This document shows positions 57,868 through 61,766 of a stretch of DNA of 64,000 nucleotides, one piece after another. How positions within the stretch are numbered: position 1 is the first letter of the stretch; each line of letters begins with the position of its first letter. The DNA comes from Escherichia phage I29, in the sequence record ON286975; one strand, 5' to 3'. A model generated the notes under the pieces. It made no database searches. It saw only the letters and a list, made by a program, of their open reading frames with translations, and was not told where the DNA came from. A program made the translations under genes and the position numbers.

Positions 57868-59415
57868 TTAGATAAAACGCTTGAACATAGAAGGTGATGA
57901 GATTGATGGAATCACACAAGGAAGTGCTACCTCCTCTTTCTCTAGGAAATTAATCGCAGAAGCTACACAGTCGGCCCAGTCGTCTTTTCTGTTAAATGTT
58001 GATCTTTCCCCGTTGAATTTTTCAAGTTCAGTCAGAAATGCTTCCAGAGTATCAGGATGGAAACTGGATTTTACAATCCTCACCATTCCTTGTTGGGCAA
58101 GATTGGCAAAAGGTGAGAACCTTGTCAGTTTAGACTTGTTGGAAGGCATTGGGTCTTCTTCAACCCTGAACCCTTCGGCAAGCAAGGATCTGGAGGAGGT
58201 TAAGAACTCACTCTTACCTGCCTGCCCTGGGTCCACAGAGAAGACGATTATGCAATCATCACCATCGAACTGCGCCTGTTTCCTGATGATCACATCTCGT
58301 TCACCAGCCTTTTTACAGAACTTGCCTTCCAGACCTGTGGAATACCTCCCGTCATCCACGTTCTCAGGACAATAATCACCGGACAGGTAATAAAAGCCGT
58401 CGCTATCTTTACTTACCTTAATACTGGCAGTAAAGTCAGGAAATTTATTACCGGAAGTTCTCTCGGTTCCTGCCTTATCCCATGCCCTGCAAGATACTGA
58501 CCCAAGAGGTACTCTATCGGCATCACGAAGGAAAGATCTTTGAAAATAGTTTGCACCCTCAGGCTTTGCAAACCAGTTACCATGGAGAAGCTGAGCTTTT
58601 TCCAGCTCTGGTAGACCTTCGAGGAAAGCAAGGTATTCTGGGTTGTCTCTCAAACAGACAGGATTATCGAATATTGTTGCGCCTATGAACGAGAATGACA
58701 ACGGTCTTGGCTTGATCTCTACGCCAAGTCCGTTAACCGTGGTGTATTTCTCTATCAACTCTTCTTTAGAGTCTCCCCAGATAAATTCACCGTCGCGTCG
58801 GATAAAATATCTTTTCTTACCGCATTTCTCCGGATCTGGATACCCTTCATCGTCCAACCACCATCTAACCAGTTTGGCAAGCATGTGTTCTGAATCGGGG
58901 TTACAGCTGATAACCATTCTTGATGGATACTTTGACTGAGATCGCAGACGAGACATCAGATAGTCTATCTGCTCCCATTCGAACTGCGTGCCCTCATCGA
59001 AGCAAACCATGGTGTACTCAAGCCCCTGATGGTTAAGCTTATCTTGTACATACTCCATATGGCAGTATTTTACAACAGCTCCCTTTTTGCTTCTATCCCA
59101 CTTACCAGTGTTCGGATCAAACCGTGGAAAAATGAACTTATGATCCTTCTCTCTGAACTTTGGCTTAATGTTTTCAGGCAGATCACTGTAAATAGCTACT
59201 GCTTTAGGCCATAGTCCACCCTCACCTTCCAACTGTGGGGTTGTTCTTCGGAACATAACCACAGAGCTGTGGGGGTCATCAATAATTTTAAGTGGCATCA
59301 ACTGCAAGAGGAACGACTTGCCAGACCCTGCGGCACCGCCGATTACCAAAATATCTGCATCGTTTTCTAGGATCATCTTCTGCTTTTCAGAACACGGTCC
59401 GTAAATCTTAGACAT
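57868..59415 (-). CDS. terminase large subunit
   Basis: Walker A ILVIGGAAGSGKS near N-terminus; 515 aa; upstream of portal. Confidence 0.8.
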   Translation of the reverse strand: MSKIYGPCSEKQKMILENDADILVIGGAAGSGKSFLLQLMPLKIIDDPHSSVVMFRRTTPQLEGEGGLWPKAVAIYSDLPENIKPKFREKDHKFIFPRFDPNTGKWDRSKKGAVVKYCHMEYVQDKLNHQGLEYTMVCFDEGTQFEWEQIDYLMSRLRSQSKYPSRMVISCNPDSEHMLAKLVRWWLDDEGYPDPEKCGKKRYFIRRDGEFIWGDSKEELIEKYTTVNGLGVEIKPRPLSFSFIGATIFDNPVCLRDNPEYLAFLEGLPELEKAQLLHGNWFAKPEGANYFQRSFLRDADRVPLGSVSCRAWDKAGTERTSGNKFPDFTASIKVSKDSDGFYYLSGDYCPENVDDGRYSTGLEGKFCKKAGERDVIIRKQAQFDGDDCIIVFSVDPGQAGKSEFLTSSRSLLAEGFRVEEDPMPSNKSKLTRFSPFANLAQQGMVRIVKSSFHPDTLEAFLTELEKFNGERSTFNRKDDWADCVASAINFLEKEEVALPCVIPSISSPSMFKRFI

Positions 59416-60202: not shown

Positions 60203-60472
60203 TTATCGAGGCACTCGGTGGATGATTCTAACAGTAACTGCATTTTCATTCATCAAGTATGCATCTACATCTCTGTAAATATAAAACTTCTGCTCACTAT
60301 CAACAACACAAGCTACCGCCCCTTCAGAGTTGTCTTCAAAAAAGACCACCACTGCATCGCAGCTGAGTTCATGATATGACTCTCGAAGATTTACAGCCAG
60401 AGGATTGAAATCGTCACGAAAATCTACGGTATGGGTTGGATTTACACGCTCTACAATTTTAAGTGTATACAT
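60203..60472 (-). CDS. hypothetical protein, 89 aa
   Basis: ORF-track start 60562 (TTG) overlaps tRNA-Pro; ATG 60472 with AGGAA SD taken instead. Confidence 0.45.
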   Translation of the reverse strand: MYTLKIVERVNPTHTVDFRDDFNPLAVNLRESYHELSCDAVVVFFEDNSEGAVACVVDSEQKFYIYRDVDAYLMNENAVTVRIIHRVPR

Positions 60473-60518
60473 TTTAAAGGTTCCTTTTGTTTGTATATGT
60501 TTAAAGTATAACTGAAAG

Positions 60519-60595
60519 TGGTCTCCACGGAGTGATTCGAACACTCGACCTCCTGATCCCAAATCAGGCGCTCTACCAAGCTGAGCTACGCGGAG
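60519..60595 (-). tRNA. tRNA-Pro (anticodon UGG)
   Basis: Cloverleaf read by eye on minus strand: 7-bp acceptor, T-loop TTCGAAT, anticodon loop UUUGGGA, CCA encoded. Confidence 0.8.
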
Positions 60596-60606
60596 TATTT
60601 ATTATT

Positions 60607-60681
60607 TGGTGGCCCTGGGTGGAATTGAACCACCGTCTGGCGATTATGAGTCGCTTGCTTGAACCTTCCAGCTACAGGGCC
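60607..60681 (-). tRNA. tRNA-Met (anticodon CAU; elongator or Ile2 not resolved)
   Basis: Cloverleaf on minus strand; anticodon loop CUCAUAA; CCA encoded. Confidence 0.75.
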
Positions 60682-60682
60682 A

Positions 60683-60758
60683 TGGTGCTGATGGCAGGAC
60701 TTGAACCTGCAACCTATTGATTACAAATCAATTGCACTACCAATTGTGCTACATCAGC
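60683..60758 (-). tRNA. tRNA-Thr (anticodon UGU)
   Basis: Cloverleaf on minus strand; D-stem GCAC/GTGC, anticodon loop UUUGUAA; CCA encoded. Confidence 0.8.
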
Positions 60759-60763
60759 AAAAA

Positions 60764-60862
60764 GGTGCTAGGTGATGGAATCGAACCACCTATGTATTCA
60801 ACGACTACCTCGTCTATTTTCAGGATTAAAAATCCTCGCCCTTGCCAAAGGGCTTACCTAGC
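60764..60862 (-). tRNA. atypical tRNA-like gene (possible anticodon UUU, not resolved)
   Basis: Good acceptor stem, D arm and T arm, but 30-nt insert between anticodon arm and T arm; CCA not encoded. Confidence 0.4.
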
Positions 60863-60960
60863 TCAGTATGTTGACCATGTTGCTAGTCGGCGATGACGAC
60901 TGTAACATTTGATAATCCGGTTCTGCTTCCGGCTTTCGCTTAATTACAAGGTCAACAATA

Positions 60961-61051
60961 TGGCTGAGGGTAATGGAATCGAACCATCATCAAGTCATCC
61001 TCAACGGGACGGTTTTCAAGACCGCTTGAGCACCATTGCTCCCTACCCTCA
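60961..61051 (-). tRNA. tRNA-Ser (anticodon UGA)
   Basis: Class II cloverleaf with long variable arm; anticodon loop CUUGAAA; G73 and CCA encoded. Confidence 0.75.
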
Positions 61052-61165
61052 TTTATAAACAATACTGATAATGACACTGATTTTCGAGCAGTTAGTGACT
61101 AGTATAAACGACGATAAATATCAATGCCATTATCTGTATGATTTATGCATTTAAAACTATAAATT

Positions 61166-61252
61166 TGGTGGGGAGTGGTGGAGTCGAACCACCCGAGTCG
61201 CAATGACAATAGATTTACAGTCTACACCGCTACCCCTACGGGATAACTCCCC
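61166..61252 (-). tRNA. tRNA-Tyr (anticodon GUA)
   Basis: Class II cloverleaf; anticodon loop CUGUAAA; 15-nt variable arm; CCA encoded. Confidence 0.8.
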
Positions 61253-61256
61253 AATT

Positions 61257-61331
61257 TGGCACCCCGTACTGGACTCGAACCAGTGTCAACGGCTTAGAAG
61301 GCCGCTGCTTTATCCACTAAGCTAACAGGGC
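61257..61331 (-). tRNA. tRNA-Arg (anticodon UCU)
   Basis: Cloverleaf on minus strand; anticodon loop CUUCUAA; acceptor stem with two G-U pairs; CCA encoded. Confidence 0.75.
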
Positions 61332-61427
61332 ACTGGGTGGCTTTCTTTTACACCTTAGCCGCCAGAAAAGGTGGGAGACCATGTTTACAATATTACACTG
61401 TTAAGCAAAGTTTGTCAAGAAAATATT

Positions 61428-61766
61428 TTAGCTATTGCTAACAGGTTGTATTTCTGTGGTAAATGGCATAAAAGGTGCTGGTTTTTCAGCCTCTTCTACT
61501 ACCACCTCTTCCTCTTCACCAAACATCTCATCATATTCTTCCTGCATTCGGTCTGCCTTATCAAGAACATACTCTGCAATGCTTTGACGAATATTTTGTT
61601 TGGTTTTCGGGTCCAACATCAGCTCTCTTAAAACTTTGTGAGCTTCTGGAACCATCGCTATAAAAGATTCCTTCATATCAAGGATGTTCTTCTCTAGCTG
61701 AATGGCGTTGGACTCCTCTTTCAGAGGTCTGCCTCTACGGCGACGCTTTTTAGTTGTATCCGCCAT
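61428..61766 (-). CDS. small basic protein with AT-hook-like motif
   Basis: ATG 61766 with GGAGG SD (ORF-track start 61886 lies in non-coding DNA); N-terminal KKRRRRGRPLK; acidic C-terminus. Confidence 0.5.
   Translation of the reverse strand: MADTTKKRRRRGRPLKEESNAIQLEKNILDMKESFIAMVPEAHKVLRELMLDPKTKQNIRQSIAEYVLDKADRMQEEYDEMFGEEEEVVVEEAEKPAPFMPFTTEIQPVSNS

Follow-up and report, generated by a model that had tools for sequence, protein, structure and literature searches.

The stable RNAs C and D of phage T4 (species 1 and 2) are small, dispensable and partly tRNA-like RNAs of a phage transfer RNA (tRNA) operon. Here we describe a 99-nucleotide (nt) gene in the tRNA cluster of Escherichia phage I29 (ON286975), an rV5-like coliphage (Vequintavirus) of which one stretch of 64,000 nt, hereafter the window, was analysed. 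The gene belongs to an undescribed, phage-restricted family of tRNA-like molecules, named five-armed RNAs in this work. The T4 RNAs differ from it in size and architecture, and a blastn search with the 99-nt query gave no match labelled T4-like, though T4-like records were present in the collection; the matches were records named after Enterobacterales or Campylobacter.

The class II tRNAs (Ser, Leu and Tyr) also have an extra hairpin between the anticodon and T arms. Their arm begins 1-2 nt after the anticodon stem, whereas that of the five-armed RNA is set between linkers of 7 nt and 9 nt; the latter has neither a Ser, Leu or Tyr anticodon nor G73 and A14, which are identity elements of class II tRNAs. 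With canonical tRNAs, including tRNA-Lys(UUU), the molecule shares a 7-base-pair (bp) acceptor stem, a 4-bp D stem, a 5-bp T stem with the loop UUCGAUU, the G19:C56 pair and the location in a phage tRNA operon. It departs from them in its 15-nt anticodon arm, its 31-nt variable region with linkers, the swap to A8/U14 and the incomplete CCA end. In YrlA/Y RNA-like molecules, mascRNA and the tRNA-like domain of transfer-messenger RNA (tmRNA), a mimic of the tRNA elbow and acceptor recruits tRNA-processing enzymes or other proteins; the five-armed RNA has such an elbow and acceptor, but it consists of a whole cloverleaf with one arm added and does not form a domain of a larger RNA, and no Rfam match to these RNAs was obtained at the locus. 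A further comparison is offered by tRNA-Sec and the allo-tRNAs (Mukai et al. 2017, PMC5389517), with which it has in common a long extra arm and a possible 6-bp D stem with a 4-nt loop (the D stem can be extended by UU/AA). Members of the Hena1 type even show UCA and are annotated as suppressor or SeC. However, the five-armed RNA is of 7/5 geometry, against 8/5, 9/4, 8/4 or 9/3 in that group. This assignment was rejected, as G73 is missing, the window copy has UUU and A73, and the best member of the family reached 22.8 bits on the tRNA-Sec model (RF01852), for which the gathering threshold is 47.

Phage tRNAs have lately been recast as counters to tRNA-cleaving immunity, and in the examples known so far canonical tRNAs take the place of the host species that was cleaved. 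The tRNA-Lys(UUU) of phage T5, which neutralises PARIS (PMC11464382, PMC12409363), is a canonical tRNA that escapes the PARIS nuclease AriB through U39A, A41C and U16C (PMC12409363). AriB recognises U36AAUC|A41, the C41 version of which is found in the weaker substrate tRNA-Asn, and its other main target is tRNA-Thr(UGU) (PMC12409363). The five-armed RNA of the window is comparable in that a Lys-type phage molecule, together with a tRNA-Thr(UGU), is set in a context of tRNA-cleaving immunity. It has C41 and the D loop UUUGGCAA; unlike the T5 tRNA, it keeps U39 and C40, and its body is structurally non-canonical. By analogy, the family may stand nearest in function to the tRNA-like mimics, and in position and dispensability to T4 RNAs C and D as these are generally understood.

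Architecture of the 99-nt RNA

On the minus strand ARAGORN printed 'tRNA-??? (atcc)' for a gene with exactly the limits 60764-60862, which bears out the original prediction, made from the letters of the window, of a tRNA-like gene inside the tRNA cluster. Its parts are listed in Table 1. That prediction described correctly the acceptor stem, D stem and T arm, which have 7, 4 and 5 bp, the T loop being UUCGAUU. The minimum free energy (MFE) fold is a five-arm cloverleaf of -34.2 kcal/mol (z = -3.66), and none of 200 shuffled sequences folded as well. The hairpin at the anticodon position can be drawn with 5 bp and the loop UUUUA, or with 4 bp (AGGA/UCCU) and the 7-nt loop UUUUUAA, whereas in the MFE fold it is closed to 6 bp around a 3-nt loop; the loop UUUUUAA first proposed thus holds for the 4-bp drawing and for neither of the others. 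The spacer between this hairpin and the T stem was put at 30 nt with a further small hairpin. The hairpin was found, but the length is 31 nt (15 nt of hairpin between linkers of 7 nt and 9 nt), which is indeed beyond the arm of roughly 10-24 nt of normal class II tRNAs. As for the CCA end, said earlier not to be encoded, only the terminal A is missing, since CC follows the discriminator A; all six normal tRNAs of the window cluster encode the full CCA.

Table 1. Coordinates in the window of the five-armed RNA, its parts and the putative promoter of the cluster
Feature	Sequence	Coordinates	Strand	RNA positions	Remarks
Five-armed tRNA-like RNA gene, 99 nt		60764-60862	-		RNA position 1 = 60862; ARAGORN, Rfam tRNA and family model R1
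Acceptor stem, 5' strand	GCUAGGU	60856-60862	-	1-7	Pairs with 60767-60773; 7/7 Watson-Crick
A8 A9	AA	60854-60855	-		Before the D arm; read from the sequence
D arm	GCCC-UUUGGCAA-GGGC	60838-60853	-	10-25	4-bp stem
G26	G	60837	-		Between D arm and anticodon-position hairpin
Anticodon-position hairpin	AGGAU-UUUUA-AUCCU	60822-60836	-	27-41	15 nt; canonical arm 17
5' linker	GAAAAUA	60815-60821	-	42-48	A-rich; predicted single-stranded, unpaired in all MFE folds
Fifth hairpin	GACGA-GGUAG-UCGUU	60800-60814	-	49-63	
3' linker	GAAUACAUA	60791-60799	-	64-72	
T arm	GGUGG-UUCGAUU-CCAUC	60774-60790	-	73-89	5-bp stem, 7-nt loop
Acceptor stem, 3' strand	ACCUAGC	60767-60773	-		Pairs with 60856-60862
Discriminator A, then CC	A CC	60766; 60764-60765	-		Next base U, CCA incomplete (ACC-UUUUU)
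Putative sigma-70-like promoter	TTGACA-17 nt-TAATAT	61390-61418	-		Consensus scan, 10/12 matches; upstream of tRNA-Arg

The Rfam tRNA model (RF00005) matched 60766-60862(-) with 35.5 bits, above the gathering threshold of 29, and four neighbouring tRNAs scored 60-79.5 bits. The alignment required a 26-nt insertion in the variable region and one nucleotide deleted in the anticodon stem. A close variant of the window copy scored 29.4 bits, and none of the Av-05, Seuna- and Mydovirus homologues was reported at the gathering threshold. The covariance model thus left the boundaries of the gene unchanged at only 35.5 bits and did not turn it into an ordinary tRNA with other ends, the outcome that had been named as counting against the prediction. 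Of the features of canonical tRNAs, the 7-bp acceptor stem, the 4-bp D stem and the 5-bp T stem with its 7-nt loop are present, with 100% of the cells paired in these helices of the family alignment, and so is the elbow between G18G19 of the D loop and positions 55/56 of the T loop. Absent are the 5-bp anticodon stem with a 7-nt loop (U33, purine 37), a variable region of class I (4-5 nt) or class II type (an arm of ~10-24 nt beside the anticodon stem), here replaced by 31 nt, and a common anticodon among orthologues.

No other Rfam family was reported at the locus, even at E <= 5. A tmRNA was discarded, as ARAGORN found none and the sole Rfam tmRNA match was at chance level and lay elsewhere. 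A parent tRNA did not emerge when the insert-free core was compared with 203 phage tRNAs: none stood out, as the scores reached no more than 19 out of some 75; nominally, Thr, Lys and Cys came closest. A resemblance by eye to a hammerhead core (CUGA...hairpin...GAA), and a possible K-turn or loop-E motif in the linkers, were also considered and appear doubtful (G8 is absent, and there are no three-way junction and no tandem G.A pairs); the candidate positions are all invariant and hence covariation is uninformative there. Protein coding at the locus was rejected as well. The plus-strand open reading frame (ORF) at 60717-60896 (59 aa) merely spans tRNA genes, and the coding sequences (CDSs) annotated over the homologues in KE22, NINP13076 and FENT2 are of the same kind.

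The family and the selection acting on its fold

A covariance model (R1) was built from nine sequences. Members of the family scored 81-127 bits on it (109 for the window copy) and ordinary tRNAs at most 24.8. In all, 23 distinct homologous sequences were collected from Vequinta-, Avuna-, Seuna-, Mydo- and Henunavirus, Klebsiella myoviruses and one N4-like podovirus, the Salmonella phage UTK0002 (Schitoviridae), and more than 200 sequence records of enterobacterial phages contain the RNA. BLAST revealed diverged copies at the equivalent place, directly after tRNA-Thr, in Av-05 (Avunavirus), BIS47 (Mydovirus) and the Seunavirus phages PVP-SE1, 4MG, KE22 and EspYZU15. Pattern scans and further BLAST searches added metagenomic contigs, Erwinia Henunavirus, Klebsiella phi1_175008-like myoviruses, GAP31, Mydo, NINP13076 and UTK0002. 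No copy was seen in the stretches of 16-31 kb, tRNA clusters included, of the Certrevirus phages CR9 and PcCB7V and the phi92-like VivaForever. A host origin of the gene was rejected, since 185,579 bacterial and archaeal genomes gave no exact match to the pattern of 3' linker plus T arm.

The annotation of this RNA is inconsistent. On identical sequence, GenBank records carry the labels tRNA-OTHER, tRNA-???(atcc), tRNA-Pseudo, tRNA-Lys or tRNA-TERM, and some records have none; the Erwinia Henunavirus member in Hena1 is annotated as 'tRNA-sup(tca)'. In the rV5 genome paper the tRNAs of the whole genome number six, and neither a tRNA-Lys nor the five-armed RNA is among them (PMC3606486). No account of it was found in literature searches.

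Covariation was analysed over the 23 distinct sequences and 22 pairs (506 cells). Standard pairs occupy 99.4% of the cells, and 13 of the 22 pairs show double compensatory changes. The covariation score was 0.508, in comparison with 0.186 +/- 0.015 for shuffled data (reached by 0 of 500) and at most 0.100 when the partners were slid. Double changes affect 5 of the 7 pairs of the acceptor stem, and 3/4 and 3/5 pairs covary in the D stem and the anticodon-position hairpin, respectively; acceptor stem and T arm are paired in 100% of the cells. The tertiary elbow pair is G19:C56 in 16 sequences and U19:A56 in 7, with no mismatch in any: where the D loop UUUGGCAA becomes UUUGUCAA, the T loop UUCGAUU becomes UUAGAUU, so that C56 changes to A exactly where G19 changes to U. 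Stem covariation and this elbow swap together indicate that the five-armed RNA folds into the L-shape of a tRNA.

The fifth hairpin is found in every member, although its sequence and length are unrelated among them; between rV5 (GACGA/UCGUU) and Av-05 (GACGG/CCGUU) it shows a compensatory change. The most conserved part of the RNA is the linkers. GAAAA of the 5' linker is kept in 22 of the 23 distinct members, UTK0002 with GUAAAA being the exception, and AAUACAUA of the 3' linker is invariant (23/23), a conservation that holds by construction in the metagenome members, which were fetched with a pattern of 3' linker and T arm, and that is the same in the members derived from BLAST. Between the window and Av-05 the five-armed RNA is 90.9% identical, as compared with 71.1% for tRNA-Thr and 76.7% for tRNA-Tyr; with PVP-SE1 the identity is 70.3%, against 62.8% and 62.5% for true tRNAs. 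Comparative evidence of this kind argues that the structure is selectively maintained. With compensatory changes in the stems and identities at or above those of orthologous true tRNAs, the gene is therefore not regarded as a decaying pseudogene.

Mobility and genomic surroundings

UTK0002 and its close relative FSL SP-058 differ by a clean 113-nt segment between two tRNAs, which holds the five-armed gene alone. The UTK0002 copy is 85% identical to that of the metagenome contig L051, which resembles Klebsiella myoviruses. These comparisons indicate that the gene moves alone between unrelated phage families, and its partner would therefore be encoded by the host or consist of very general factors. 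In the Vequintavirus phages V18 and JES2013, the Tyr and Ser genes and the five-armed gene have been lost naturally and independently, by recombination between similar tRNA segments. The gene is therefore an accessory one, and the RNA is dispensable in the laboratory. Directly upstream of the insertion site in UTK0002 (L068 510-595), and likewise in FSL SP-058 (L074), lies an unannotated 86-nt gene shaped like tRNA-Sec. It has an 8-bp acceptor stem (GGAAGAUU/AAUCUUCC), G73, CCA, a long extra arm and the anticodon loop UUUGAAC (UGA, Ser-type), and it could be an allo-tRNA-like gene of N4-like phages.

In the window, ARAGORN found seven minus-strand genes: Arg(UCU), Tyr(GUA), Ser(UGA), the five-armed RNA, Thr(UGU), Met/Ile(CAU) and Pro(UGG). 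From the sigma-70-like site upstream of tRNA-Arg (Table 1) we infer that they form one operon (Arg-Tyr-Ser-five-armed RNA-Thr-Met-Pro) driven by this promoter, which is the simplest reading. A terminator-like call over the T arm and UUUUU is restricted to the rV5 lineage. Over the region 60400-61500 the window shares 100% identity with Escherichia phage A51.2 and ~99% with many other phages. About 18 of the records that match rV5-like E. coli phages over this region, at 99-100% identity, are named 'Campylobacter phage' (MG065635, MG065653, MG065654, MG065661, MG065672 and others), probably through mislabelling or contamination.

Other elements of the cluster were also noted. The 114-nt spacer between tRNA-Tyr and tRNA-Ser (61052-61165, minus strand) folds into a single long hairpin of -26.4 kcal/mol (z = -4.22), a value unmatched by any of 200 shuffles. 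A weak promoter-like site lies within it at 61130-61101, and the spacer may be another stable RNA or an element of operon processing. The 98-nt spacer directly upstream of the five-armed RNA (60863-60960, minus strand) is closed by a long inverted repeat, UUGUUGACC...GGUCAACA (z = -2.62), and is missing together with Tyr, Ser and the five-armed RNA in V18 and JES2013. The tRNA(CAU) at 60607-60681 (minus strand) is 'Met' according to ARAGORN and most records, whereas the BASEL annotation of a phage 99.9% identical over the region has it as tRNA-Ile reading ATA; elongator Met, or Ile2 with lysidine, are the candidates. The large terminase gene (57868-59415, minus strand) is intact in the window, whereas its match in rV5 (DQ832317) and some relatives is in 2-3 pieces, split by the gene of an HNH homing endonuclease or of endonuclease VII.

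Further tRNA-like genes were met in related phages. In Seuna- and Mydovirus a second aberrant tRNA lies between tRNA-Thr and the five-armed RNA (L002 1419-1494; L003 1418-1494; L004 1351-1426; L005 1353-1426; L006 1351-1425). It has a good cloverleaf and anticodon loops of 6-8 nt, in which position 33 is C or A and position 37 a pyrimidine; ARAGORN printed Ile(gat), ???(agat), ???(ga) or Arg(gcg), and 1 of the 5 reaches the Rfam tRNA threshold. Downstream of the five-armed RNA (L002 1605-1796; also L003, L005 and L007), a non-coding stretch of ~190 nt is shared by Seunavirus phages and, in part, by Av-05. Within it, TTTTAAAGTGCATTAGCTCAGATTATTTGA is similar to the start of the Tyr-Ser spacer of the window; the stretch folds at shuffle level (z = 0.49) and may be a promoter region. 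Klebsiella-myovirus-like contigs with the five-armed RNA (L051 7862-7934; L060 2791-2865) encode a tRNA(CUA) of the amber-suppressor type, 'Pyl' in ARAGORN, and a tRNA-Pyl is annotated in the related phage KP13-26. Two elements lie outside the family: a 90-nt tRNA-like match in PcCB7V (Certrevirus; L043 13924-14013), with 24 bits on R1, which begins 15 nt upstream of the CDS 'HNH restriction endonuclease PacI' and mostly overlaps it, and a 79-nt 'tRNA-OTHER' in VivaForever (phi92-like; L044 10214-10292).

Possible decoding or mimicry of host tRNAs

One important question is whether the hairpin at the anticodon position decodes. The insert was removed in silico and the anticodon called by ARAGORN in each lineage. 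For the window type a standard tRNA-Lys(ttt) was obtained in 15 of 16 variants, and the 'tRNA with an insertion' considered in the original prediction is thus apt as a description of the anatomy, though it is not favoured as a function. The call was Lys(ttt) in Vequintavirus, Ile(tat) in Avunavirus and (tca) in the Hena1, Klebsiella and UTK0002 types, and in Seuna- and Mydovirus 6-nt loops with 2-base 'anticodons' resulted. The hairpin has 15-16 nt in all members and never combines 5 bp with a 7-nt loop; the 16 nt of Seuna- and Mydovirus make 5 bp and 6 nt, and position 33 is A in the Hena1 type. U35A and another discriminator set Av-05 apart from rV5, yet compensatory changes have occurred elsewhere in the molecule. 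In PVP-SE1 and BIS47 the hairpin is identical despite differences in the D, T and acceptor stems, and is therefore constrained, but not as an anticodon. Phages with canonical Lys(UUU) and Gly(UCC) genes carry the five-armed RNA too. Finally, the 3' tail is degenerate in the rV5/Av-05 clade (ACC, ACA, UAC or CAC), and most other lineages encode U-CCA. The varying 'anticodon', the short arm, the co-occurrence with Lys(UUU) and the degenerate tail favour a non-decoding role for the family, and a tRNA-derived RNA of this sort, one of the options first listed, is the reading preferred here, its role being judged from sequence comparison.

Some observations weigh against a non-decoding role. The closing position of the loop in the Hena1 clade varies between U-A and C.A, like positions 32/38 of a real 7-nt anticodon loop. 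The rV5 version has UUU, U33, A37 and A73, which we take to be the identity set of lysyl-tRNA synthetase (LysRS), and a canonical tRNA-Lys is absent from the phage, both in the 64-kb window and in the whole-genome list of the rV5 paper. Given the Lys-type features of rV5 and the 32/38-like variation of Hena1, decoding is therefore possible in some lineages.

Our preferred reading, to which we give a probability of roughly 45%, is that the five-armed RNA is processed like a tRNA and acts as a non-decoding tRNA mimic on host tRNA-binding factors, plausibly anticodon nucleases. A stand-alone tRNA-derived molecule, it retains the parts seen by processing and tRNA-binding proteins (the 7-bp acceptor stem, the T arm and the D-loop/T-loop elbow); its anticodon arm is no longer canonical, and a fifth arm has been added between the two conserved A-rich linkers. 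It would be transcribed together with six tRNAs, cut by RNase P at the 5' end, trimmed at the 3' end to ...ACC and completed by the host CCA-adding enzyme. The mimic would then occupy or divert a host tRNA-binding factor and would not decode. The likeliest targets would be immune nucleases that attack tRNAs, enzymes against which these phages evidently contend. The hairpin of the rV5 lineage would imitate the tRNA-Lys(UUU) of the host and would include UAAUC, the element that AriB of PARIS recognises, and the linkers and extra arm would serve as a family-specific surface, or as a block to productive use by synthetases and the ribosome.

Several findings make a link to tRNA-targeting immunity suggestive. 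The hairpin of the rV5 version contains UUUUAAUC, which coincides with positions 33-40 of tRNA-Lys(UUU) in E. coli (8/8; 10/12 over positions 30-41), a sequence verified in all 5,426 E. coli genomes, and both molecules have the discriminator A73. The phage gene for tRNA-Thr(UGU) adjoins that of the five-armed RNA. A relative with 99.9% identity across the region of the tRNA cluster has annotated genes for RNA ligase 1 and for two phosphoesterases at a distance of 3-4 kb from the cluster, outside the window. Since the AriB element is kept (U39), unlike in the T5 escape tRNA-Lys with U39A, bait fits better than replacement. A more specific proposal would make the family a mobile, phage-borne tRNA decoy in which a five-armed scaffold, matured by the host, imitates host anticodon arms lineage by lineage and jams AriB, PrrC or RloC, the extra arm and the short hairpin barring translation; in our estimate this full version is rather unlikely. 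Against mimicry of this kind, the match to tRNA-Lys was noticed post hoc and the loop concerned is U/A-rich, and CAUCCA and AUCAA, the loops of other clades, are without a demonstrated host-tRNA counterpart. Vequintavirus phages are still sensitive to the tRNA-cleaving defences Ec2ApeA and retron Eco2, and the five-armed RNA is therefore no general shield. A decoy would also need high abundance or tight binding, and the mechanism as a whole is putative.

The gene might instead encode a functional, aminoacylated tRNA-Lys(UUU) that tolerates a large variable insertion and a 4-bp anticodon stem and decodes AAA after cleavage by PrrC or PARIS, like the T5 tRNA-Lys, known to neutralise PARIS. Besides the insert-free Lys(ttt) call with the loop UUUUUAA (U33, A37), this is consistent with a discriminator A that is derived in the rV5 lineage (U in other lineages), with the absence of another tRNA-Lys noted above, with the neighbouring tRNA-Thr(UGU), a co-target of PARIS, and with the tRNA-Lys label chosen by several annotators. 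However, the anticodon arm is 2 nt short, which leaves the molecule either without residue 26 or with a G.G pair at 27:43, and U32-A38 and U33-A37 may close the loop to 3 nt. A8/U14 stand in place of U8/A14, CCA is incomplete although every neighbour has it complete, and the Rfam score is about half that of the neighbours. The Av-05 sister, 91% identical, has UAU and a U/C discriminator, yet its structure is under selection, and other clades have 6-nt loops or A33. The U39/C40 element is retained, whereas T5 mutates it to escape AriB. In addition, the class II LysRS approaches its substrate from the side of the variable loop, where a 31-nt insert would clash. A decoding tRNA-Lys is hence considered doubtful.

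Another non-decoding role, as an aminoacyl carrier for a non-ribosomal reaction, an element of precursor processing or stability, or a protein-binding or regulatory small RNA acting through its linkers, appears improbable. A sequence-specific partner is indeed suggested by the invariant linkers and the constrained hairpin, most lineages encode U-CCA, and the two stable upstream spacers described above would accord with additional stable RNAs in the cluster, which recalls T4 and its RNAs C and D. However, the linkers have no complementary sites in the window beyond the gene itself, fewer than expected by chance. The RNA is without G3:U70 and G73, and its A14 is replaced by U; these are acceptor-stem and identity elements for synthetases that do not depend on the anticodon. 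A role purely in cis is also at odds with the transfer of the single gene to an unrelated phage, at a different position of the tRNA cluster. A decaying, insertion-disrupted and functionless pseudo-tRNA, which the original prediction had also allowed for, accords with the labels tRNA-Pseudo and tRNA-OTHER of some pipelines and with the viability of phages that lost the gene, but is very improbable in view of the compensatory changes in all stems and the tertiary pair, a conservation at or above that of true tRNAs, linkers invariant across at least five genera and the horizontal acquisition as a single gene. A tRNA that decodes quadruplets (a frameshift suppressor), as the 4-base anticodon AUCC in the ARAGORN output would imply, can be set aside, because it requires an all-A/U stem (AUUUU/AAAAU) that uses up the conserved 5' linker, distorts the D arm, is weakened by a mismatch in Av-05 and is impossible in the Seuna or Hena types, while the hairpin that covaries is the G/C-containing AGGAU/AUCCU.

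The five-armed RNA is a conserved, non-canonical derivative of tRNA that has received five incompatible pipeline labels or been overlooked, and many of the phages that carry it have been described as candidates for therapy or biocontrol. The jump of a single 113-nt gene between phage families suggests that the gene is advantageous on its own, through host factors. Should the RNA decode, the structural tolerance of synthetases and the ribosome would be wider than thought, extending to a 4-bp anticodon stem and a 31-nt variable region. If the preferred mimicry of host tRNAs is correct and the molecule serves as a decoy or inhibitor, it would found a new class of anti-defence elements made of RNA and show the tRNA fold in a new use; as a decoy, it would also be without described precedent in phages as an anti-defence tRNA mimic that is RNA-only and non-decoding. 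Either way, the five-armed RNA merits an Rfam family of its own and consistent annotation.

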